23,614 nt of DNA from an uncultured virus (IMG/VR IMGVR_UViG_3300005239_000257) (IMGVR_UViG_3300005239_000257), one strand, 5' to 3'. Positions 1 to 23,204 are shown, counted from the stretch's first letter. Notes: a model not told the origin generated them from the letters alone. A program made the numbers and translations.

Positions 1-3000
1 AAATATGGAAATAAAACTACTTTAATAGAACAAAGTTTACTTAAAACACCTCAAGGTAAAGAAACTTTTGATTTTACAAAATCTGAGTTTGGTGAATCTA
101 TAGGTGGATTAGTTGAAACAATAACTAAAAGACTTTATGATCCTGTTTTACCTGATTTAAAAAGAGCTACATCTAGAGATCAGTTTAAACAAGATTTAGT
201 TTCACAAGCAGCAACTATTATTTCAAATGAATTTGATCCAAACAAACAAGATCTTGGTAAATTTACCACAAATAGATTAAATCTAAGAGCTAATAGAATT
301 GCTTCAGAAACTTTTGAACAAAAAATAACAGATGATGTTACCGAAGCGAAAGCTGTGTCAACTGATGAAAAAGCTGCAGACGAAGTTACGAAAAGAAAAC
401 CAATAACTGAGGCATTAAATTTAAAAGAACTTAAAGAATCTGTTGATAAAAATGCAGAGCTTGGTATAGTTAAAATAGAAAATACTTTAGACAATAACGA
501 TTTATCTGATCTTAAAAAGATAAATGCAATTAGAAAAAGTATTGGTGGATTATTTGAAAAACAATATTTTAAAGAAATAGGTAAAGTATTAGGTAAAAAT
601 ACAAAAACATCTGATGATTTTTCTAAATATTTAAATAATAATTTTGAAACTTTATCATACGCAGCAACTAATAATATTGATTTTCAAAAAGGAAACAACA
701 TAGCTTCTGATTGGAATACAAATTTTCCAACAAAAGAAGAGTTTATTGATTACTACGAAGGCAAAGATATTTTGCCATCACAACCAAGAAGTGTAAAATC
801 TGATAGAAAAAAATCTTTAATTAACGCCGTTGCTAGGCAAATGGCTAATGATGGTTTAAATAGTTATGTTAAGAAAAATCCTAAAGTAGCTAAAATATTT
901 AAACAAAAATATAAAGTACCTTTAGCTAGTAAAAGCACTATTCCAAAAAATGCAATACAAATAGCTGAAAACCTTCCTGGTTATGGATTAAGTAAAAATC
1001 CAAGAACACCAGCTGCTGGAGTTGCTAATGCTATACTTAAAAAAGTTGGTGGAGAATTAGATTTCAGCAGTGATGATATGCAGAAAAATCAAGATAATAT
1101 TAATTCATTTTGGAATATACTTGATTCTGCAGTTGCAAAAAATCCAAGCATTTTTCCTAAAGAAATATTTGGTATAAAAGGAATTTTTAGACCTAGCGGT
1201 AGAATATTTGGCACAAAAAGAGGTTCAAGTAAAGCTAGAGCAAATGATAAATCTGGAAAACTTACTGAAGAATATAACATACTTAATAATTTAAACGAAA
1301 AAAGATTTTCAGATTTTCAAAAAAAATATAAAGGTAAAATGGGATCTTTAGTTAATGATGCTAAGGGATGGAAAGGCAGTTCTTATTCTACTGTTTTTGG
1401 TAAAAAAGGAATAGTTACTGAACAAAGTATAAAAAAAGCTATAAAAGAAGGTAAAGCTGATGATTTTAATAAGAAAAACACAGCAATGCATCGACAAGTT
1501 TGGAGTTTAATGTTTGATCAGATAAAAATAGATCCTAATTTTGCTAAAATTGTAGATAAAATAACAAACACGGCTGATGCTACTAATAATTGGCATAGAT
1601 TTGGAGCAGAGTTTGTTGCTTATTCTATAAATCCTAAAGGTAGTAATAAAAAATTATATGAATGGGAGCATGCTATGCAAGCTAATACAGCTAAATTATT
1701 TTTATTAGACGCTGCTGTAAAAAAAATACCTTTTAATGAAATATATAATGCTGTTTCTAAAAATTATAAACTTATAGCATTAGACAAAGCTTCTGATTTA
1801 ATTTTAGGAAAAGCAAACAGAGGTAATTCTATGGGTGATAATTGGAATATGTTTACTGATAGTTATTTAAGTAGATATTTTTCACCAGAAGTAGTATTAC
1901 AAGGTGGTATTGATCCTAAAACTATTATTGGCTTAAATGGAGAAAGTTTAGCTACAATGTATAATATAGATTCAGCTGGGCAACCCGTTATAAAACCTAA
2001 AATTTTATCTTCTAAAAGTAGAACATTTTATGAAGATGGAGATGGTGTATCTGAAATTGAAGCGCCTTTAAGCAGAGAGTTTAATAAAATGTTAGAAAAA
2101 ACAAAAGGCGTTAAAGCTGGTGCTGTTTATTCTGATGCTAGAGCCGCTAAGATGGGTACTAAAAAAGGTTTTCAAGCTTTTGTACCTTATTCAGCTGAAG
2201 ACTTTTTAGGTTTAATATATCCTACATTAGGTAAAGGTGAGCAAGGTAATAAAGATCTTAAATGGTGGAAAGACAATGTAATGACACCTTATAATGATGG
2301 CATGACTAACTTTGAATCAGCTAAACAAGCTGCAATGATAGAGTGGAATCAAATAAAAGATCAAATACAAAACACACCAACTAATTTAGGTAAAGAAGCT
2401 GTACGTGACTTTTCTAATGAAGATGCTATACGAGTATATTTATGGGATCAAAAAGGTGTTGTGCCCGATGGTTTGTCTAAAAAAGATATATCAGCTTTAA
2501 CTAAACATGTAAAAGCTAATCCTGAATTACAAGATTTTGCTAATCAAGTAGCTGGTTTAAATATAAACGGTTATCCTGATCCTACAAAAGGATGGTTAGC
2601 TGGTACTATTACAACAGATCTAGTTAATCATGTAAATACATCAACAAGATCTGAAATGCTTGAGCCTTGGCAGCGAGCTATAGATGAAATATATACTAAA
2701 GATAATAAAAATAAACTTAGAGCTACATATGGTGATAAATACATAGAAGCTTTAGATGATATTTTATATCGAATGAAAACTGGTAGAAACAGACCTACTG
2801 GGGCTAATAGAATAACAAATAATTGGTTAAACTGGGTTAATGACTCTGTTGGTACGATTATGTTCTTTAACCAAAGATCTGCTATACTACAAACTATATC
2901 GTCTATAAACTTTATAAACTGGTCAGATAATAATCCAATAGCAGCGGCTAAAGCTTTTGCTAATCAAAAACAATACTGGTCAGATTTTGCAGAGTTATTT

Positions 3001-4395
3001 AATTCTGATTTTCTTAAACAAAGAAGATCTGGTCTTAAAACAGATGTAAACTCAGATGAGATAGCTCAACAAGCTGCTGGTTCTACTAATAAAGTAAGAG
3101 CTGGTCTTTCTTTGTTACTTAAAAAAGGATTTTTACCTACGCAAATAGCAGATAGTTTTGCTATTGCTTCAGGTGGATCTACTTTTTATAGAAACAGAAT
3201 TAATTCATTGATGAAAGAAGGAATGAGTGAGTCTGATGCTAAAAAACAAGCTTTTTCAGATTTTAGAGATTCTGCAAATGAATCTCAACAATCATCTGAT
3301 CCATCAAGAATTAGTATGGAACAAGCAAGCTCATTAGGGCGCGTTATATTAGCTTTTGCAAACACTCCGATACAATATACTAGATTAACTAAAAGAGCCG
3401 TTCAGGATCTTATGGCTGGTCGAGGAGACTGGAAAACCAATGTATCTAAGATAGTATATTATGGTGCTGTGCAAAATATTATATTTACAGCTTTACAACA
3501 AGCTATGTTTGGTATGTTATTTGCAGATGACGATGATGAATTTCAAAATGAAAGGAAAGATAATGCTACATTTAATATAGCTAATAGTACAGCAGACACT
3601 TTTTTAAGAGGTTCTGGTGTTGCCGGAGCTTTTGTTGCTATGCTTAAAAATATGGCATTAGAAGTTAAAAGACAAAGTGAAAAGTCAAGATCTGATTATA
3701 CTAAAGTAGCAGATAAGCTATTTACTGTTTCACCGCCTATAGATTCTAAGTTTAGAAAACTTAAAGCTGCAGGTAGAGCTTTTACTTATAAACAAGAGCT
3801 TGAAAAAATGAGAACAAGAGGTGTTGCATTAGATAATCCTGGCCTTATGGCTATTGCTCAAACAATATCTGCTTTTGGTAATATTCCAGCAGATAGAGTT
3901 CTACGTAAGTTAAATAACATAGTTGAATCTACAAATGACGAAAATGCAATTTGGCAGCGTATTGCTTTAGCAATGGGTTGGGGTCAATGGGAACTTGGTA
4001 TTGAAGATAGAAAAACGCGTGAAGCTAAAATAGAAAGAGATGCTTTTAAAAGAGTTGAAAAATCTATTGGTAAAGTTGTTAAAAAACGTGAAAAAGATGC
4101 TAAGAAAAAAAGTCCTATTAAAGATTTAGCACCAGGAGTTTTAGGTGAAGCTAACAGAGATGGTAGCATTGTTGTAGCTAAAGGACTTTCAAAAAAGAAA
4201 CGTGAAGAAGTTATTAAACATGAAAAAGTTCATCAAAAAGAAATGAAATCTGGTAAACTTGATTATGATGATAACTTTGTTTATTACGGTAAAAAAAAAT
4301 ATGAAAGAAAAAACGGCAAAATAATGCACAATGGTAAAGCTAAGATTGAAGGAGATCACAGTTTACCTTGGGAAAAAGTTGCACATAACGCTTAA
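1..4395 (+). CDS. Giant multidomain (polyvalent / internal virion-type) protein, 5'-truncated; sigma region-2-like segment, possible His-Me/HNH-like segment, long helical region and C-terminal HExxH metallopeptidase domain
   Basis: Frame +1 is open from base 1 (KYGNKTTLIEQ...) into the called ORF at 355, so the true start lies upstream of the window. HEKVH at 4219-4233 followed by PWEKVA fits a zincin-like motif. The virion role is inferred from size, strand and position. Confidence 0.75.
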   Translation, partial: KYGNKTTLIEQSLLKTPQGKETFDFTKSEFGESIGGLVETITKRLYDPVLPDLKRATSRDQFKQDLVSQAATIISNEFDPNKQDLGKFTTNRLNLRANRIASETFEQKITDDVTEAKAVSTDEKAADEVTKRKPITEALNLKELKESVDKNAELGIVKIENTLDNNDLSDLKKINAIRKSIGGLFEKQYFKEIGKVLGKNTKTSDDFSKYLNNNFETLSYAATNNIDFQKGNNIASDWNTNFPTKEEFIDYYEGKDILPSQPRSVKSDRKKSLINAVARQMANDGLNSYVKKNPKVAKIFKQKYKVPLASKSTIPKNAIQIAENLPGYGLSKNPRTPAAGVANAILKKVGGELDFSSDDMQKNQDNINSFWNILDSAVAKNPSIFPKEIFGIKGIFRPSGRIFGTKRGSSKARANDKSGKLTEEYNILNNLNEKRFSDFQKKYKGKMGSLVNDAKGWKGSSYSTVFGKKGIVTEQSIKKAIKEGKADDFNKKNTAMHRQVWSLMFDQIKIDPNFAKIVDKITNTADATNNWHRFGAEFVAYSINPKGSNKKLYEWEHAMQANTAKLFLLDAAVKKIPFNEIYNAVSKNYKLIALDKASDLILGKANRGNSMGDNWNMFTDSYLSRYFSPEVVLQGGIDPKTIIGLNGESLATMYNIDSAGQPVIKPKILSSKSRTFYEDGDGVSEIEAPLSREFNKMLEKTKGVKAGAVYSDARAAKMGTKKGFQAFVPYSAEDFLGLIYPTLGKGEQGNKDLKWWKDNVMTPYNDGMTNFESAKQAAMIEWNQIKDQIQNTPTNLGKEAVRDFSNEDAIRVYLWDQKGVVPDGLSKKDISALTKHVKANPELQDFANQVAGLNINGYPDPTKGWLAGTITTDLVNHVNTSTRSEMLEPWQRAIDEIYTKDNKNKLRATYGDKYIEALDDILYRMKTGRNRPTGANRITNNWLNWVNDSVGTIMFFNQRSAILQTISSINFINWSDNNPIAAAKAFANQKQYWSDFAELFNSDFLKQRRSGLKTDVNSDEIAQQAAGSTNKVRAGLSLLLKKGFLPTQIADSFAIASGGSTFYRNRINSLMKEGMSESDAKKQAFSDFRDSANESQQSSDPSRISMEQASSLGRVILAFANTPIQYTRLTKRAVQDLMAGRGDWKTNVSKIVYYGAVQNIIFTALQQAMFGMLFADDDDEFQNERKDNATFNIANSTADTFLRGSGVAGAFVAMLKNMALEVKRQSEKSRSDYTKVADKLFTVSPPIDSKFRKLKAAGRAFTYKQELEKMRTRGVALDNPGLMAIAQTISAFGNIPADRVLRKLNNIVESTNDENAIWQRIALAMGWGQWELGIEDRKTREAKIERDAFKRVEKSIGKVVKKREKDAKKKSPIKDLAPGVLGEANRDGSIVVAKGLSKKKREEVIKHEKVHQKEMKSGKLDYDDNFVYYGKKKYERKNGKIMHNGKAKIEGDHSLPWEKVAHNA

Positions 4396-8972: not shown

Positions 8973-9421
8973 CCTCGCTTCTTTCTTCTTTCTTTGATCA
9001 GAATCATCGTGTGGTCTACCTCCTTCTGGTTTTGCGGCTTGTAAAGCGTCTTTCCAATCTTGTTTTTCGTGAGCCATAGTTTAAATAGTTTCCATCTTAT
9101 AGGGAAAGACTCATTAGCCCTTCCCTTACATTCAATTATATAGTCTTTTCCAACAAAGTCAGGTGTATACTTAATTCCCAGTATTTTCTTTTGCCCTCTG
9201 TTAGTATATTCACCTTTTCCGTTTGCTTGTTTTTCAAAAGATTCATTGTTAAAATTAAATCCTTCGATAAGCTGGAAAACTTCATTTTCATATCCTTCAA
9301 ATAGTTTGTTTTTTTTAAGAGCCATATACGTATATCGCTCTAAACCTGATGCAAAATTAATGCCGTCATAAGTAATTTTCTTAGACTGTACTGGACCTTT
9401 TTTTCTAGATCTTTTTTTCAT
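8969..9421 (-). CDS. PD-(D/E)XK endonuclease, T7 endonuclease I / DUF1064-like (possible resolvase)
   Basis: DGINFASGLE, YTPDF and IIECKG motifs. Confidence 0.8.
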   Translation of the reverse strand: MKKRSRKKGPVQSKKITYDGINFASGLERYTYMALKKNKLFEGYENEVFQLIEGFNFNNESFEKQANGKGEYTNRGQKKILGIKYTPDFVGKDYIIECKGRANESFPIRWKLFKLWLTKNKIGKTLYKPQNQKEVDHTMILIKERRKKRG

Positions 9422-10284
9422 TAAGTTCTATTTGATACAAAACTAGGAGGTGGTCCTGGATCTGGATAAGCAGATATTGTTTGAGGATCAATAACCTCTA
9501 TATCTTTAACAAACGTACCGTTAACCATTTTACCTGTACGTTTAGATATAACATCATAAGCAGAGCCTATACAGCTTTCTATATGTACACCTCTCATATA
9601 AGCTAAGTTAGTTAATACAACAACCATATCGCCTATAGCATCTATAACCTCAGGCTGATCATTTTTTAATAAAGCTTTAGCTAGCTCACCAGCTTCTTCT
9701 TGAAGCTTAACATATTGTGTAGTAGCATTACCCTTGTCATATAAACCTCTTTCTTTTGCCCACTCTCTAATTAATTCAAATTGATCTTGATGAGAATATA
9801 ATTTTTCTTTATGTTTTTGAAAAGGACTAGCTTCATGCATTGCTTTATTATAAATATAACAACGATTAGCATTAAACATAGAAGTTTTAACATTATCTAT
9901 AATCCACTCTATTTTATCTGTAGCATTTATATCAATAGTACCATAAGGTGTTTCCCACTGCAGATCACCTAAAAAATTACCATTAATATCTTCTTTAGAT
10001 ATTGCAAATGTAGTTGTTTGTTCTGTTACGTTTACTTTTTTCATTTCTTTATTAAATAATTTATCATAAGGTTTAATGTCTACTTTATAGCCTAAATCTT
10101 CTTGTAATGTTCTTTCAGCTTTTGCAGCTTCTTTTATATCATCTGTTTCAAATAATATTTCATACTCACCTGGTTTATAACCTTGTTCTTGTTCAACACG
10201 TTTTTTAATGTTTTTAGTACAACCTATTTTTTTACCAAGTATATGATATACTTTATACTTACCGCTTTTAATTTCTATATCCAT
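9421..10284 (-). CDS. N-terminal GIY-YIG-like domain fused to a C-terminal MazG-like NTP pyrophosphohydrolase
   Basis: N-terminal VYHI..KIGCTKNIKKR...EAAKAERTL; C-terminal WAKERGL...KLQEEAGELA...DAIGDMVV (EExxE/DxxxD metal site). Confidence 0.8.
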   Translation of the reverse strand: MDIEIKSGKYKVYHILGKKIGCTKNIKKRVEQEQGYKPGEYEILFETDDIKEAAKAERTLQEDLGYKVDIKPYDKLFNKEMKKVNVTEQTTTFAISKEDINGNFLGDLQWETPYGTIDINATDKIEWIIDNVKTSMFNANRCYIYNKAMHEASPFQKHKEKLYSHQDQFELIREWAKERGLYDKGNATTQYVKLQEEAGELAKALLKNDQPEVIDAIGDMVVVLTNLAYMRGVHIESCIGSAYDVISKRTGKMVNGTFVKDIEVIDPQTISAYPDPGPPPSFVSNRT

Positions 10285-15870: not shown

Positions 15871-16647
15871 TTAATCCTGATATATTTTTAAATTTGTTGC
15901 AGAGTACTCATGTACCTTTGACTGCGAACGTATACCATTAGTAGAAACATAGTAAGCTAATTCATTTAAAGCATCTTCGTTATTTTTTAGTCTTGTCAAT
16001 AACCTTTGCTTTTGTTTCTTTACGCTTTCCATGTTACCTCCATAATATTTAGCAATTTCAGCTATCTTTTTAGGTTTAGAATATATATCATCTAAACCAT
16101 AAAACATTTGCATCATGCCTGAATACTTGGGTATGTACTTTTGTAACCAACCTATAAGATAATCACCTAGTTTATCATGTTCATAATTATATATGTCATC
16201 TTCAACTATAGCAATAACATCGCTGTCAAACCATTGAGGAAATAATACAGAGATAAAACCAAAACCATTTGTATGTCTTTTTTTATCTTTATTATTCCAT
16301 ATACCTTTTATAGGTCTACCAGATCCATCGACGTTTTCTTTTATTCTATCACCTACAATACCTTTAATGCTGATACTCAAGAACTTACTAACTGTTTTAT
16401 TCTTGTCTAATTTTGATTCAAGCTTATTTATATAAGTCCAATCAACATTACTCCAAGCTGTTAGTAGTGCTAAATACGCCTCTTGATTTAAATCATTAAT
16501 ATTCATAACACCAATAGCTGAATAGTCTTTTGAATAACTATTTGCTATTTTAGTAGCCATCTTAAAATAATCAGATGGTATATTAGATTTTATATCATTA
16601 ACTGTTTGTCGGTTGATAGCATATATTTTCTTATTAAAATTTTTCAT
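15871..16647 (-). CDS. Phage-encoded sigma70-family RNA polymerase sigma factor
   Basis: Region 2-like MATKIANSY...NDLNQEAYLALLTA; region 4 HTH-like MFYGL...KIAEIAKYYGGNMESVKKQKQRLLTRLK. Confidence 0.8.
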   Translation of the reverse strand: MKNFNKKIYAINRQTVNDIKSNIPSDYFKMATKIANSYSKDYSAIGVMNINDLNQEAYLALLTAWSNVDWTYINKLESKLDKNKTVSKFLSISIKGIVGDRIKENVDGSGRPIKGIWNNKDKKRHTNGFGFISVLFPQWFDSDVIAIVEDDIYNYEHDKLGDYLIGWLQKYIPKYSGMMQMFYGLDDIYSKPKKIAEIAKYYGGNMESVKKQKQRLLTRLKNNEDALNELAYYVSTNGIRSQSKVHEYSATNLKIYQD

Positions 16648-19106: not shown

Positions 19107-19330
19107 AGTGTTGATTTTGTTTTACATAGCCATTCCATTTCTCGCCAAACTCTTAAGTTTCTTATAGCATCAAAAGCTAATCCAAAGGTTTGTTCTTCAT
19201 CAATACCTGCTAAACCTTTATGTCTATTTTTAAAATAGTAATTAGCTTCATATTCAAAGTGATGAATTTTAGAATAAATCTTGTTATGTATTCTATCGTT
19301 TATATAATATTGCATTTCTTGTTTATTCAT
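19103..19330 (-). CDS. Hypothetical protein
   Basis: ORF track. Confidence 0.65.
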   Translation of the reverse strand: MNKQEMQYYINDRIHNKIYSKIHHFEYEANYYFKNRHKGLAGIDEEQTFGLAFDAIRNLRVWREMEWLCKTKSTL

Positions 19331-19409
19331 AATGCTTATCTAGTAATTTATTAGCAGTTTCCATACTGATCTCATTGATCTCATATAGATGCCATATTAA
19401 TTTAGTCAT
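19323..19409 (-). CDS. Hypothetical micropeptide (28 aa, MTKLIWHLYE...)
   Basis: Manual translation; A-rich leader after the tRNA. Confidence 0.45.
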   Translation of the reverse strand: MTKLIWHLYEINEISMETANKLLDKHYE

Positions 19410-19429
19410 TTTTATTTATTTAAAGTTAG

Positions 19430-19502
19430 TTGCGCAGGGAGGATTCGAACCTCCGACCTCAAGGTTATGAGCCTTGCGAGCTGACCTCTGCTCTACTGCG
19501 CT
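19430..19502 (-). tRNA. tRNA-Met(CAT), initiator (fMet)-type; CCA not encoded
   Basis: AGCGCAG acceptor with 1:72 mismatch; D arm GAGC/GCTC; anticodon arm CAAGG-CTCATAA-CCTTG; T arm GGAGG-TTCGAAT-CCTCC. Confidence 0.93.
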
Positions 19503-19568
19503 AAAATGTAGGACCTCACCAACGGTTTTATTTACCCACGCGTTGGTACGTTGGCTTTTTGGTCCTTT

Positions 19569-19697
19569 TTAATATTGATTTTGTTGCCATTGTGTAATAC
19601 CTGAATTATATCTCTGATAGTATTCACGTTCTATTGCTTCTATTTGAGCATTAGTTATTTTAATTATTTTATTTGCCTTGTGCTTCCTCTTTTTCAT
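19569..19697 (-). CDS. Hypothetical protein (42 aa, MKKRKHKANK...)
   Basis: Manual translation. Confidence 0.5.
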   Translation of the reverse strand: MKKRKHKANKIIKITNAQIEAIEREYYQRYNSGITQWQQNQY

Positions 19698-19947
19698 TTA
19701 TTGATTCGTTTATAAGATTTTCTGCTATTTCATGATAGTTTACTTCAGATAAAAATGCATTAGCATAATCTTCAACTAAACCATTACCATTACCAATTAA
19801 AGTACCGAACACAGCGTCTTCAACTAATTCTTTTACATAATCAGCATCAACATGCTCGCATTCATACCAGTCGTAACCGTCTATTATTTCTAAATTAACT
19901 CGCCATGTAGCGTAGTTAGTCCACCCGTTATGTCTTTCATCGCTCAT
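19669..19947 (-). CDS. Acidic phage protein with GWTNYATW motif
   Basis: ORF track; the N-terminal GWTNY.TW and C-terminal VNY.EIA pattern resembles small phage early proteins. Confidence 0.75.
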   Translation of the reverse strand: MSDERHNGWTNYATWRVNLEIIDGYDWYECEHVDADYVKELVEDAVFGTLIGNGNGLVEDYANAFLSEVNYHEIAENLINESINEKEEAQGK

Positions 19948-20099
19948 AATTGATTTCTTTTAAAGTATTCTCTTGCTTCATTAAGCATTGATAATCCTAC
20001 ATCGTAGTGATTAAATACATAGTTTACTTTTTCATCTATATTTAGATGATTGTAGTAACTATTTACGTGATCTAGTATATTTATTTCTGTGTTTGTCAT
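19944..20099 (-). CDS. Hypothetical protein (51 aa, MTNTEINILD...)
   Basis: Manual translation; ATGA overlap downstream. Confidence 0.6.
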   Translation of the reverse strand: MTNTEINILDHVNSYYNHLNIDEKVNYVFNHYDVGLSMLNEAREYFKRNQL

Positions 20100-20110
20100 A
20101 ATTTATTTTT

Positions 20111-20361
20111 NNNNNNNNNNNNNNNNNNNNNNNNNNNNNNNNNNNNNNNNNNNNNNNNNNNNNNNNNNNNNNNNNNNNNNNNNNNNNNNNNNNNNNNNNN
20201 NNNNNNNNNNNNNNNNNNNNNNNNNNNNNNNNNNNNNNNNNNNNNNNNNNNNNNNNNNNNNNNNNNNNNNNNNNNNNNNNNNNNNNNNNNNNNNNNNNNN
20301 NNNNNNNNNNNNNNNNNNNNNNNNNNNNNNNNNNNNNNNNNNNNNNNNNNNNNNNNNNNNN
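20111..20361. other. Assembly gap (251 N)
   Basis: Run of N. Confidence 1.
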
Positions 20362-20471
20362 TTTGCGTCACCGTCAACTGTAATTTCATTATCATACAAA
20401 CCTATGTATGTTAATTTATAAGCTTTTGGTATCACATTTTTAAATTGTGTGTCAAATTTATTACCTGCCAT
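20362..20471 (-). CDS. Hypothetical protein, 3' end in the gap (MAGNKFDTQF...)
   Basis: ATG after an A-rich leader; reading frame open into the gap. Confidence 0.6.
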
Positions 20472-20491
20472 TTTTATTTATTTATAATTAG

Positions 20492-20565
20492 TGGACGTGG
20501 TAGGAGTCGAACCTACGTTTGTTACGTTTCTCTAACGGTTCTCGTAACACTTACCCGTCACGCCC
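20492..20565 (-). ncRNA. D-armless tRNA-like RNA resembling an isolated tmRNA tRNA-like domain (G3-U70)
   Basis: Acceptor GGGCGTG/CACGTCC plus A; T arm GTAGG-TTCGACT-CCTAC; central stem TGTTACG/CGTAACA with a 16-nt loop. Confidence 0.75.
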
Positions 20566-20759
20566 TATTTTCTACGCCAAGCTTTGTGAACTTGTTCACT
20601 TAATTCTTGACTAACTATTTGTACTTCTAATACTTGTTTGTTTGCAATAATAGGTATATAACTTACTTTTTTAGTGCTTGAACACTGAACACAGCTATTA
20701 TAACCTAGTTTTATTCTTACTGGATGAATTATATCACCACATCTACAATGTTTTTTCAT
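20565..20759 (-). CDS. C4 zinc-finger protein, TraR/DksA-finger-like
   Basis: CRCGDIIHPVRIKLGYNSCVQC resembles the CG..I...R......C..C finger pattern. Confidence 0.65.
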   Translation of the reverse strand: MKKHCRCGDIIHPVRIKLGYNSCVQCSSTKKVSYIPIIANKQVLEVQIVSQELSEQVHKAWRRK

Positions 20760-20776
20760 ATATTATTTGTTACATA

Positions 20777-20816
20777 TATATTATCACAAACAAATTTGAT
20801 TTGTAACGTACTTTTT
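20777..20816 (-). promoter_or_regulatory. Repeated early promoter-like motif, copy 2
   Basis: Same two boxes with N12 spacer; 17 nt upstream of ATG 20759. Confidence 0.88.
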
Positions 20817-20819
20817 TGA

Positions 20820-21026
20820 TTATTTTTCTAGCCATTCTGCTTTTCGCATGTTTTTATTAACACCTAAGTCATCAAAATCACCATTAAGTATCATTTCTTG
20901 TATTACTTGTAATTTTTCTGATTGAGAACATGTGTCATAACCAAATTCACCGAATAAAGATTCTGCTGTAATATCCATTGTTTGTAATAACCACCTTGAG
21001 TGATCATTAATTGTTTCGTTTACCAT
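20820..21026 (-). CDS. Hypothetical protein (FGEFGYDTC motif)
   Basis: ORF track; TAATG coupling. Confidence 0.7.
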   Translation of the reverse strand: MVNETINDHSRWLLQTMDITAESLFGEFGYDTCSQSEKLQVIQEMILNGDFDDLGVNKNMRKAEWLEK

Positions 21027-21550
21027 TATAAGTTATTTATTAATTTTACTAATTTATCTTCGATTGAAGCAACACCTTCAGTGAAGCCTTCGTTATAACC
21101 TTCGTTATATGCTTCAACCCAAGCATCTGCTTCTTTTACTCTTTCTTTTGTTAAATATGATTTAACATTTAAAGCTTTGTGCTCTTCATACTGCTTTAGT
21201 ATTTTATTTTTACGTAATTCTACAGCATATTCGCCACAATTTTTATTATTAAAATTTTGTAAAGCGTTTATTGCTTCTGAAATATCATTATATTTTATTC
21301 GAGCAATACCTGAAAAAGTCTTTTTAACACCATCATAATCATATTCACGATTTATTTCTTCACGTGAATTTATTTGATATAGTCTATCACCTATTTCATT
21401 GTCTTCTTTGTAGTATTCGCCATTTCTAATACCTTCACGAGTAACACTTACTCGAGCATATTGGTGATTAGCATAGCCAATACGACCATCTGCCATACGG
21501 AAATATATACCTGTTGGCGTGGTTTTTATTGGTTTTAACGTTTCTAACAT
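21026..21550 (-). CDS. Hypothetical protein with C-terminal YNEG/FTEG (GxxxG) repeats
   Basis: ORF track. Confidence 0.75.
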   Translation of the reverse strand: MLETLKPIKTTPTGIYFRMADGRIGYANHQYARVSVTREGIRNGEYYKEDNEIGDRLYQINSREEINREYDYDGVKKTFSGIARIKYNDISEAINALQNFNNKNCGEYAVELRKNKILKQYEEHKALNVKSYLTKERVKEADAWVEAYNEGYNEGFTEGVASIEDKLVKLINNL

Positions 21551-21556
21551 TTGTTT

Positions 21557-21754
21557 TTATATTAATTTAAAATATTTTTTAATAGTATTCACGCTTGCTT
21601 TATTAAAAGCGTGTACTCTTTCTCTATATTGTTTGTTACTACAATATTTCTTCATAGCATTTACACTTGTAATACCATGATCTTCGCCATATTTTTCTTC
21701 GAACGTTGCTATTTGAAGCAATTTATCGTCCATCATTTGTTTACTTATTCTCAT
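21557..21754 (-). CDS. Hypothetical protein
   Basis: ORF track. Confidence 0.65.
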   Translation of the reverse strand: MRISKQMMDDKLLQIATFEEKYGEDHGITSVNAMKKYCSNKQYRERVHAFNKASVNTIKKYFKLI

Positions 21755-21897
21755 ATTTTGTATTTTTTCATAAAGTCACATATATCACCTACTATTTTGT
21801 GTTCTTTGCTATCTATAGTATTTTTATACTTAAAACAGTAGTTGTATATATAGTCGTTAAACACTTTATTTAATAATTTCTTTTCTATTTTATTCAT
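21751..21897 (-). CDS. Hypothetical protein (48 aa, MNKIEKKLLN...)
   Basis: Manual translation; first gene after promoter copy 3; ATGA overlap downstream. Confidence 0.6.
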   Translation of the reverse strand: MNKIEKKLLNKVFNDYIYNYCFKYKNTIDSKEHKIVGDICDFMKKYKI

Positions 21898-21913
21898 ATT
21901 ATATATTTACAAT

Positions 21914-21953
21914 TATATTATCACAATATAATTTAATTTGTAACGTACTTTTT
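21914..21953 (-). promoter_or_regulatory. Repeated early promoter-like motif, copy 3
   Basis: Same two boxes with N12 spacer; 16 nt upstream of ATG 21897. Confidence 0.88.
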
Positions 21954-22217
21954 AATTTTTCTATTTCTTGCTTCTTCTTGATATTCTAAAATACAGTGAG
22001 CAAGATCGTCTTTGTCCCATTCCATTAATTGATCGTACGATAAAGTATTATTTTCTTCATTAAATTCATCATCTACAATATAATTTATTTCTCTTTGCAA
22101 ATCGTCACCTTCATAATCTTCTGCTAAATAAGAATGTTCTTGTATTACTCTATTATATATTTCTTCTCTTAATTCTAATTCTTCATCAGTAAGATCAAAT
22201 TCTTTTTCTTTTCTCAT
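21933..22217 (-). CDS. Highly acidic protein (DNA-mimic candidate)
   Basis: About 29 of 94 residues are D/E by manual count. Confidence 0.75.
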   Translation of the reverse strand: MRKEKEFDLTDEELELREEIYNRVIQEHSYLAEDYEGDDLQREINYIVDDEFNEENNTLSYDQLMEWDKDDLAHCILEYQEEARNRKIKKYVTN

Positions 22218-22218
22218 A

Positions 22219-22332
22219 TTATTTTAAAGTCATCGTTATTAATTCAAATTCTTTATTTGTTATTGTACCTTCCATTAAAGCAAGGAACTCACTTGAGACA
22301 TCTCTGCCTGTATATTTATTTATTATAGTCAT
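22219..22332 (-). CDS. Hypothetical protein (37 aa, MTIINKYTGRDV...)
   Basis: Manual translation; stop 1 nt before the next ATG. Confidence 0.55.
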   Translation of the reverse strand: MTIINKYTGRDVSSEFLALMEGTITNKEFELITMTLK

Positions 22333-22468
22333 ATTCTTTTATTATTTTAATTTGTTCGTTAATTTCTTTTATTCTTTTTTTATTATCACTTTGACTTGAC
22401 CAAACAGAGTCATTTCTAACTTGTTCATGTAATGTTTCTAGTGCTAAAATTATTAAATGCTTATTCAT
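22316..22468 (-). CDS. Hypothetical protein (50 aa, MNKHLIILAL...)
   Basis: Track ORF with the start moved downstream of the tRNA-like element, to an ATG with an AAATAAT leader. Confidence 0.6.
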   Translation of the reverse strand: MNKHLIILALETLHEQVRNDSVWSSQSDNKKRIKEINEQIKIIKEYDYNK

Positions 22469-22482
22469 ATTATTTATTTTAG

Positions 22483-22553
22483 TTGAGTGGAAAGGAATCG
22501 AACCTTTATTTCCCATTTAACTAAGGAATTTAACCTTGTTAACTGTTCACTCA
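22483..22553 (-). ncRNA. Second D-armless tRNA-like RNA
   Basis: Acceptor-like TGAGTG/CACTCA plus A; T arm AAAGG-TTCGATT-CCTTT; central stem TTAAC-AAGG/CCTT-A-GTTAA with a 7-nt loop TTAAATT. Confidence 0.65.
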
Positions 22554-22623
22554 TTTGTCTTCTCGACTTGGTCTGTTCGTTTAAGGAAAGAACACACTTC
22601 AACACCTTTTATTTATTTATAAT

Positions 22624-22857
22624 TTACACAAGAGTTTTTAATTCTTTTACAAATGTTGGTAAATTATTTGTATTTGTATAAGTTTTATACTTTGTCCAAC
22701 AATTCATATTTTCAAATTTATCTTTTAATTGATTGAAGACAACACTTTGATTATATGTATATTCTACACCTTTTTTATTTACAAATACACACACTTGTTT
22801 ATTTTCTATACCTTTTACACTTATTACAAAGCGTTTTACATTTTTTATATTATTCAT
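22624..22857 (-). CDS. Hypothetical protein
   Basis: First gene after promoter copy 4. Confidence 0.7.
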   Translation of the reverse strand: MNNIKNVKRFVISVKGIENKQVCVFVNKKGVEYTYNQSVVFNQLKDKFENMNCWTKYKTYTNTNNLPTFVKELKTLV

Positions 22858-22909
22858 TTTATTATTATTTATTTATTATTATTATTTATTATTATTAATT
22901 TCTTACATT

Positions 22910-22949
22910 TATATTATCACATTTTTATATGAATTGTAACGTACTTTTT
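22910..22949 (-). promoter_or_regulatory. Repeated early promoter-like motif, copy 4
   Basis: Same two boxes with N12 spacer. Confidence 0.88.
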
Positions 22950-23164: not shown

Positions 23165-23204
23165 TATATTATCACATATTATAGTTATTTGTAACGTACT
23201 TTTT
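23165..23204 (-). promoter_or_regulatory. Repeated early promoter-like motif, copy 5
   Basis: Same two boxes with N12 spacer. Confidence 0.88.

Follow-up and report, generated by a model that had tools for sequence, protein, structure and literature searches.

Introduction

Phage T7 carries ribonuclease (RNase) III sites between its early genes, i.e., structured signals at which a host RNase cuts the transcript into defined mRNAs. In plant mitochondria, so-called t-elements guide RNase P and RNase Z to the cuts by which mRNA ends are made (Forner et al. 2007, PMC1920247). Here, we describe three tRNA-shaped elements in the 23,614-nucleotide (nt) DNA of an uncultured virus (IMGVR_UViG_3300005239_000257), the whole of which is called the window in the following (bases 20111-20361 are masked as N). 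They are an initiator-type tRNA-Met (element 1), a likely mimic of transfer-messenger RNA (tmRNA; element 2), and a degenerate element that retains little beyond its acceptor stem and T arm (element 3). Each ends in CTAA and is followed by a short leader and a start codon. We lean towards the reading that all three are substrates of host RNase P and of the host's 3' processing within early operons, such that their excision would cut, and so punctuate, the message.

Several features of these elements have precedents. In E. coli and B. subtilis, G residues of RNase P pair with C74 and C75 of the precursor, of which the C74 pair is critical. RNase Z acts on CCA-less precursors, which it cuts behind the discriminator, and an encoded CCA blocks it (PMC1874595). 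T4 tRNA-Ser and B. subtilis trnI-Thr carry UAA where CCA would stand (PMC11143913, PMC1874595), and phage tmRNAs as such are already known (PMC9004378, PMC8776804). In the titles and abstract openings of the articles retrieved on phage tRNA-like elements, we found no description of tRNA-like punctuation between phage protein genes.

Results

Three T-arm elements end in CTAA

The T-arm motif GGTTCGANTCC (at most one mismatch) occurs three times in the window, always on the minus strand, compared to an expectation of 0.22; none of 100 shuffles reached three copies. The initial annotation of this DNA had claimed three tRNA-shaped elements that end with CTAA rather than CCA, each followed by an AT-rich leader and an ATG. 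Both claims were borne out, including all positions (Table 1): direct reading shows for each element N73-CTAA, i.e., the discriminator followed by the tail at positions 74-77, then 10-16 A/T bases and the ATG. The pentamer ACTAA is not enriched across the window (85 observed, 109 expected), and given its per-position frequency of about 0.002, three matches exactly at positions 73-77 are not chance. The trailers of tRNA-Met and element 2 are not independent, since the same 16-mer TAAATAAATAAAAATG, of which the window holds exactly two copies, stands ahead of the ATG after both. A pairing of the 5' leader with the CTAA trailer was also considered and rejected on direct reading.

In the window, ARAGORN calls the tRNA-Met only. 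Elements 2 and 3 are thus not filed as tRNAs, i.e., they reach neither the score nor the ARAGORN call used as tRNA criteria.

Table 1. Features of the three elements and their surroundings in the window (ORF, open reading frame; MFE, minimum free energy).
Feature	Coordinates	Strand	Basis or remark
Element 1, initiator-type tRNA-Met (CAT), CCA not encoded	19430..19502	-	ARAGORN; Rfam tRNA 65 bits
CTAA trailer (74-77) of tRNA-Met	19426..19429	-	direct reading; CTAA in 16/16 distinct relatives
16-nt A/T leader and ATG (19409) of 28-codon ORF 19323-19409	19407..19425	-	direct reading
Structured non-coding spacer immediately 5' of tRNA-Met	19503..19572	-	MFE -21.1 kcal/mol, z -3.03
Element 2	20492..20565	-	Rfam tmRNA (RF00023) 30.6 bits, E 8e-10, below gathering score 47
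CTAA trailer of element 2	20488..20491	-	direct reading
16-nt A/T leader and ATG (20471) of next ORF	20469..20487	-	ORF frame crosses the masked N stretch
64-amino-acid ORF upstream of element 2	20565..20759	-	last base of TAG stop is G1 of element 2
Promoter-like site, GTTACA-16-(TG)nGATAAT	20780..20807	-	would drive unit with element 2 and tRNA-Met
Element 3	22483..22553	-	Rfam tRNA 21.4 bits (gathering score 29, E 0.4); MFE fold
CTAA trailer of element 3	22479..22482	-	CTAA in 5/5 family members, L001 and L216
10-nt A/T leader and 50-amino-acid ORF from ATG 22468	22316..22478	-	direct reading
Promoter-like site, GTTACA-16-(TG)nGATAAT type	22913..22940	-	upstream of unit with element 3

CTAA is tied to gene starts among relatives

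Among 50,697 phage records, blastn found no close relatives; in cultured phages, the region 19300-20120 gave generic tRNA-Met matches only, and there was nothing for 20380-22700, for element 2 or for the mini-tmRNAs introduced below. We therefore turn to environmental contigs (loci with L numbers), which came from three sources: viral contigs found by two proteins, viral contigs found by the 5' half of element 2, and metagenome contigs found by ligase alignment, where the best 80 of 540 confirmed loci were used. The 5'-half query is blind to the trailer; 10 of its 72 loci are real, and the other 62, which have no T arm plus 3' strand, were dropped. The exact 26-nt 3' pattern of element 2 had no match in viral contigs, and its 3' half, compared with genome contigs, matched tRNAs of many phyla and gave no clue to the host.

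Elements were recognized by a T stem of 5 base pairs (bp) around TTCRANN and, after it, a 7-nt strand of which no fewer than 6/7 positions pair with an upstream strand. Since this filter selects for pairing, the pairing is not evidence by itself. The 99 sources yielded 89 elements, 74 of them distinct, a few of which are probably chance matches or stem from a distant phage (L015; minus strand of L209). Within loci oriented by the ligase, 63 of 66 elements lie on the gene strand. Conserved parts are the acceptor stem, the T arm and a linker with GG; the interior varies from none at all (41-nt elements) to more than 100 nt. As a side observation, the cultured Cellulophaga phage phi10:1 (L349), a flavophage, holds two unannotated elements of acceptor stem plus T arm (31695-31761 and 31935-32005), which adjoin its annotated tRNA-Tyr and tRNA-Phe and have the tails CAAA and CTTC. 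In this phage, an unannotated tRNA-like element stands between the two tRNA genes.

Positions 74-77 of the 74 distinct elements read CTAA in 46 cases, CAAA in 8, CTAG and CTAT in 3 each, and something else in 14. C74 is present in 67/74 and is followed by A or T in 65/74, while CCA is encoded by two elements. CTAA occurs in 15 of 30 acceptor-stem families as well as in 6/6 mini-tmRNAs of a family that is a sister to element 2. Conservation of the tail among relatives, which the initial annotation had set as a check of its reading, holds for tRNA-Met (16/16) and element 3 (7/7) but for only half of the element-2 types (10/20).

The tail is associated with what follows it. An ATG-started ORF of at least 30 codons begins no more than 30 nt from N73 for 37/46 CTAA elements compared to 6/28 others (Fisher p 7e-7); when lowering the limit to 20 codons, the counts are 42/46 and 9/28. 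This also holds within the element-2 family alone, where such an ORF start follows 8/10 CTAA copies and 0/10 copies with another tail. An ORF begins within 80 nt of 52 elements, most often at a distance of 13-25 nt; three distances fall below this range (2, 3 and 5 nt), and the leader after CTAA elements is never below 13 nt. Viewed from the start codons, CTAA is found 8-30 nt upstream for 93% of 29 post-element starts vs. 18% of 939 other candidate starts, which include many internal ATGs. Given this difference, CTAA as a general leader motif was rejected.

C74 followed by A/T is the tRNA-gene end of the likely host class

A comparison of the primase-helicase puts phages of Cellulophaga (41% identity), Tenacibaculum and Flavobacterium nearest among named isolates, and the phage described here most likely infects marine Flavobacteriia. 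As a control, we used the tRNA genes of six genomes (G003-G008, loci L318-L343) from the class of a metagenome-assembled genome (MAG, G002) titled Bacteroidetes bacterium. Position 73 was set by acceptor-stem pairing, with the ARAGORN gene end including C74. All 46 tRNA genes sampled from the six genomes encode C74, which is followed by A/T at position 75 in 37 of them; CCA is found in 5 and CTAA in 2. The same picture emerges for the 22 tRNA genes of Cellulophaga phage phi4:1_13 (L317), namely C74 in 22, A/T at 75 in 20, CCA in none and CTAA in 2. The MAG itself shows C74 in 19 and CCA in 1 of 43 tRNA genes. It is heterogeneous (83 tRNA matches) and looks like a mixed bin, such that it makes a poor control alone.

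That is, the host class encodes C74 and then A/T, and thus only U75-A76-A77 is special to this phage group. CTAA is enriched in the group with 46/74 compared to 2/46 in the control (p 3e-11, with relatedness ignored). On the enzyme side, all three host-class RNase P RNA sequences displayed carry GGU in loop L15, the location of which we presume from the E. coli M1 sequence. The rule itself (C74 encoded, not C75-A76) was not found stated in PMC5143459.

Element 1 resembles an initiator tRNA

Element 1 passes the tRNA test: its score compares to a gathering score of 29 for RF00005 and is accompanied by the ARAGORN call. It has a D arm, an anticodon loop CUCAUAA, an A1/A72 mismatch, A11:U24 and the discriminator A73 (19430). 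Hallmarks of bacterial initiator tRNAs are an unpaired 1:72 position, A11:U24, and three consecutive G-C pairs at 29-31:39-41. Among the 16 distinct relatives, A:A at 1:72 is found in 15 and A11 in all 16, and positions 29-31 read GGG in 8, AGG in 4 and AGU in 4. The window belongs to the AGG form, i.e., A29-U41 plus two G-C pairs. We read element 1 as a working CCA-less initiator-type tRNA-Met. The structured spacer in front of it is conserved in L006, L007 and L009, where GGACC/GGTCC is changed to GGGCC/GGCCC; it is without a match in Rfam at E-values up to 10.

Element 2 is likely a tRNA-like-domain-only tmRNA mimic

Element 2 matches both ends of the tmRNA model, with 37 nt in place of 326 model positions. 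It is made of a 7-bp acceptor stem with G3:U70, an unpaired 9-nt substitute for the D-loop, one variable helix, a 16-nt loop, the T arm and A73, and gives no match as a tRNA. Among 16 relatives the acceptor stem does not vary, and all of them carry G3:U70, which together with A73 forms the alanine identity set. The internal helix and the T stem contain 7 pairs that are altered on both sides within these relatives. Of the mRNA-like domain of a tmRNA (tag frame, pseudoknots) element 2 has nothing, and according to ARAGORN neither the window nor L006-L015 contain a tmRNA. Its make-up is that of the tmRNA of mycobacteriophage DS6A, which is reduced to the tRNA-like domain (TLD-only); members of the element-2 family are 60-107 nt long.

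On the tmRNA model, a 60-nt relative reaches 35.2 bits, and the sister family GGGGGTG...CACCTCCA reaches 61.6-67.5 bits, above the gathering score of 47. In this sister family, i.e., the mini-tmRNAs, the whole mRNA-like part is gone, with about 304 of 374 model positions absent in the alignment shown. Element 2 is likely a TLD-only tmRNA mimic, an identity that the initial annotation had missed and that would give the element a function of its own.

The overlap of element 2 with the stop of the preceding ORF (agaaaata directly followed by GGGCGTG) recurs in L209, L247, L152 and L268. Tails of the 20 element-2 types are CTAA (10), CAAA (6), CTAG (3) and CTAT (1). The three CTAG tails are those where element 2 abuts tRNA-Met (L161 1501-1655, L203 537-690, L217 1326-1459), head-to-tail with only CT between A73 and A1; by analogy, such a pair with its 2-nt spacer would be a dimeric precursor like those of T4. 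In L009, L006 and L007, element 2 ends in CAAA and is followed by a structured RNA and then tRNA-Met. In the window, a block of about 1 kb with four ORFs instead separates element 2 from the spacer that, in L009, comes right after this element. From this block, which relatives such as L009 lack, and from the copied trailer and leader it appears that the window's second CTAA, that of element 2, was probably inherited through recombination.

Two further observations concern this family. The interior helix of element 2 (20509-20548, minus strand) and its counterpart in L209 (4351-4400) are wholly different in sequence and length (74 vs. 87 nt for the elements), with flanking parts identical and the ligases of both phages 98% identical. 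In L222 (436-470) and L151, CTAA copies of element 2 are followed by a shared ATAGGGAAAAGTC.GGAAG without an ORF, which may be another RNA; for the L222 sequence, Rfam reports nothing at E-values up to 0.01.

Element 3 is a degenerate top-half element

The acceptor stem of element 3 measures 6 bp; the element further comprises a bulged hairpin of 9 bp whose loop reads UUAAAUU, a linker containing GGG, and the T arm. A tRNA would have a 7-nt anticodon loop with U33 and a purine at position 37, plus a D arm; element 3 carries U at position 37 and has no D arm or stem. Its relatives share the stem TGAGTGA/CCACTCA and the T arm at total lengths of 41, 71, 108 and 115 nt, and one more variant exists in L216; the copies in L001 and L216 were missed by the element filter. 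Three T-stem pairs are altered on both sides, where the T stem is the only informative part, as RNAalifold misaligned the 5' strand of this family. Six minimal elements of 41-42 nt from four loci consist of nothing but the acceptor stem, an invariant AATGGTT-type linker and the T arm.

The 98%-related L209 lacks the ORF that follows element 3; its leader, which is the same as in the window, instead precedes the next ORF, to which it is joined at ATGA. An ORF of 43 codons that spans element 3 was discarded, as a TGA interrupts it in L001 and L213. Upstream of element 3, L001, L213 and L216 share with the window a nearly identical non-coding block (22554-22623, minus strand; ...GTTGAAGTGTGTTCTTTCCTTAAACGAACAGAC...), which shows weak folding (z -0.57) and contains a short GTG-started frame without conserved length.

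The elements lie inside predicted transcription units

The window has a G+C content of 31%. Its minus strand encodes a phage block of replication and nucleotide metabolism (ribonucleotide reductase, thymidylate synthase, primase-helicase, Erf, exonuclease, ATP-dependent ligase), upstream of which many small ORFs are located. No gene start in the window shows a Shine-Dalgarno sequence; each ATG is preceded by 10-20 A/T-rich bases. The promoter-like motif GTTACA-16-(TG)nGATAAT has five minus-strand copies (at 23195, 22940, 21944, 20807 and 19038), and sites of this one type are found 200-1300 nt upstream of the elements. Within the unit starting at 22940, element 3 comes after the first ORF. The same holds for element 2 in the unit starting at 20807, in which tRNA-Met follows about 1.3 kb into the unit behind the structured 70-nt spacer. 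Scanning the window revealed no terminator-like site on the minus strand between ORFs and elements, and neither promoter-like nor terminator-like sites between the elements and their flanking ORFs, so that an excision would cut a polycistronic RNA. The promoter-like motif is itself part of a longer conserved box ACGTTACAAA...TGTGATAATATA, which is also found after some relatives' tRNA-like elements. Six RNA runs from three studies contain 0.17-0.31 of the words sampled from 20362-22900, shares to which we give no weight as evidence.

Three coding features lie elsewhere in the window. A 1464-amino-acid open frame on the opposite strand (1-4395, plus), truncated by the window start, has no Pfam or PHROG match. 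At 9421-10284 (minus), a 287-amino-acid protein combines a T5orf172/GIY-YIG-like N-terminal part with a MazG-type pyrophosphohydrolase. A 258-amino-acid protein at 15871-16647 (minus) resembles a sigma-factor PHROG of phages only faintly (E 1.8e-4) and may be a phage transcription factor.

Discussion

A possible path from element to mRNA end

What is directly observed is the anatomy of the elements, their conservation and covariation, the link of CTAA to ORF starts, and the C74 rule of the host class. From the sequences we infer every cleavage step given in the following as well as selection for punctuation itself. The 5' side of each element would be cut by host RNase P, where the encoded C74 could keep its pair with the GGU of loop L15. 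At the other end, a cut at or next to N73 would come from the route by which the host matures CCA-less tRNAs, i.e., RNase Z or an equivalent and then the CCA-adding enzyme. Position 75 holds a base other than C, such that RNase Z would not be blocked as it is by CCA. We take N73-C-U-A-A as this lineage's version of the tRNA-gene end of its likely host class. The conserved acceptor stem, T arm and linker would be the part that is read by RNase P, RNase Z and the CCA-adding enzyme. As a result, the upstream message would end at the element and the downstream ORF would be left with an unstructured A/U leader of 13-25 nt, a short leader that may suit initiation without Shine-Dalgarno.

The initial annotation had proposed tRNA-like punctuation of the early polycistron. 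In favor of this proposal, the elements are located on the coding strand within transcription units, their acceptor stem, T arm and GG-containing linker are conserved, and CTAA goes together with an ORF start no more than 30 nt away. Several points weigh against it. C74 followed by A/T is nothing more than the plain tRNA-gene end of the likely host class, and the control genomes behind this statement were picked only by class membership of one MAG, in which C74 is found in 19/43. Half of the element-2 relatives (10/20) carry another tail, and none of these stands directly before an ORF; what follows is a structured RNA, a promoter-like site or tRNA-Met. Conversely, for 9/46 CTAA elements, among them the window's own tRNA-Met (28 codons), no ORF of 30 or more codons starts within 30 nt, and the trailer and leader of the window's element 2 are a near copy of those of tRNA-Met. 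Folding of the single sequences is weak (z -1.05 for element 2, z -1.86 for element 3), and all counts over relatives lack phylogenetic independence. Finally, with five promoter-like sites within 4.2 kb, processing is less needed to express distal genes.

Weighing the alternatives

The elements could also be independent small RNAs with jobs of their own, with the cutting of mRNA as an unselected by-product, which we consider a possible if somewhat doubtful account of the data. The initiator tRNA would then supply or replace host tRNA-fMet, element 2 would titrate SmpB or the alanyl-tRNA synthetase (AlaRS) and so damp trans-translation, and element 3 and its kin would be decoys for host factors that bind or cut tRNAs; the shared tail would reflect a common need for host-type 3' maturation, and the nearby ATGs a compact genome. 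Much of what is known about element 2 agrees with this, namely the alanine identity set (G3:U70, A73) kept in 16/16 relatives, the sister family scoring above the tmRNA gathering score, and the interior swapped between phages with 98% identical ligases, which looks like diversifying pressure on an RNA. DS6A has a TLD-only tmRNA, and a similar molecule inhibits tmRNA, perhaps by titrating SmpB (PMC4131195, PMC11915505). The tail, too, as C74 plus A/T, is generic for tRNA ends of the host class. Left unexplained are the link of CTAA, but not CAAA, to an ORF start within one family (8/10 vs. 0/10), the leader of at least 13 nt after CTAA elements, and the interior-less 41-nt forms kept between genes. 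This account does not exclude mRNA punctuation, which may have been selected for or may arise as a by-product of making three small RNAs that are useful in themselves.

We think it unlikely that CTAA, together with the A/T leader, is part of a cassette with the downstream gene, such that both mark recombination joints and the motif has no role in RNA cleavage. Traces of gene exchange are present: close relatives differ in the gene after tRNA-Met, with tRNA and CTAA unchanged, the window has the four-ORF block of about 1 kb after element 2 when compared with L009, the leader 16-mer is duplicated, and the ORF that comes first behind element 3 is gone from L209, where the joint is at ATGA. Yet gene gain and loss between L209 and the window also happens at plain ATGA overlaps away from the elements. 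Moreover, CTAA always begins exactly at position 74 across 15 acceptor-stem families, C-T is kept where tRNA-Met starts two bases on without any cassette, and CTAA precedes 18% of other candidate starts vs. 93% of those after elements. Least probable by far is that elements 2 and 3 are non-functional and the pentamer a coincidence in an A/T-rich genome. Their scores below the Rfam gathering thresholds and their weak folding z-scores would fit such a chance origin, against which stand the three T-arm motifs where 0.22 are expected, the conservation with compensatory changes in relatives, and CTAA in 46/74 elements vs. 2/46 tRNA genes of the host class.

Implications

More tentatively, and doubtful when all its parts are taken jointly, the elements may represent a modular RNA punctuation in a phage lineage of the marine Flavobacteriia type, composed of a top half (acceptor stem, GG linker, T arm), an N73-CUAA signal and an exchangeable interior. 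Cut by host RNase P and 3'-processing enzymes, each module would yield two products at a time: a downstream mRNA with a defined short A/U leader for non-Shine-Dalgarno initiation, and a stable small RNA with a CCA tail and a variable interior that acts on the host, e.g., as a tmRNA mimic that shuts down ribosome rescue or as a decoy for tRNA-targeting defences. U75 would serve as a switch, with CUAA standing for release of an mRNA and CAAA for another RNA coming next.

If the cuts occur, tRNA-type mRNA punctuation would exist outside organelles, in abundant marine phages, and would show how phages whose likely hosts lack Shine-Dalgarno-led initiation set the 5' ends and leaders of their mRNAs. 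The two uncultured families of TLD-only tmRNA mimics are candidates for phage control of ribosome rescue. Further elements of this kind could be found by the signature of T arm, 7-bp stem and N-CTAA.

Comparison with known systems

The closest described analogues appear to be the plant-mitochondrial t-elements and, for element 2, the TLD-only tmRNA of DS6A. A t-element is a tRNA-like fold that has a conserved T arm and lies within the precursor of an mRNA; this is found here as well, where the mRNA precursor is predicted from sequence. Both comprise non-decoding tRNA-like folds with a perfectly kept GGTTCRANYCC T arm inside mRNA precursors (PMC1920247). In plant mitochondria, the ends of the element coincide with mRNA 5' and 3' ends and the excised element gains a non-templated C or CA (PMC1920247). 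In contrast, the elements reported here belong to a bacteriophage and not to an organelle, and are known from sequence alone. They show a conserved CTAA after the discriminator, where the cited account of the plant elements gives no conserved motif at processed ends (PMC1920247), and their family includes 41-nt minimal forms and a tmRNA-derived member.

With the DS6A TLD-only tmRNA and organellar tmRNAs lacking a coding sequence, element 2 shares that little is left beyond the tRNA-like domain with its alanine identity pair and that there is no tag reading frame (PMC4131195, PMC11915505). It differs in that it comes from another phage group with another likely host phylum, with no sequence match in the 50,697 phage records, does not encode CCA but has the tail ACUA, and stands between protein genes, 20 nt upstream of an ORF.

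Like the tRNA-Pro/tRNA-Ser dimer of T4 and trnI-Thr, the elements have a non-CCA A/U tail that is to be removed before CCA addition (PMC11143913, PMC1874595). T4 dimeric precursors also have spacers of a few bases, to which the 2 nt between element 2 and tRNA-Met in three relatives correspond (PMC11143913). Unlike in these systems, C74 is encoded here with UAA after it, the tail is common to mimics that are not tRNAs, and it precedes protein genes instead of other tRNAs. Finally, the elements resemble the RNase III sites of T7 in being structured RNA signals within a polycistronic early transcript that host RNases would cut. They differ from them in shape, i.e., a tRNA-like L instead of a long duplex, and in the proposed enzymes, which are RNase P and RNase Z instead of RNase III.

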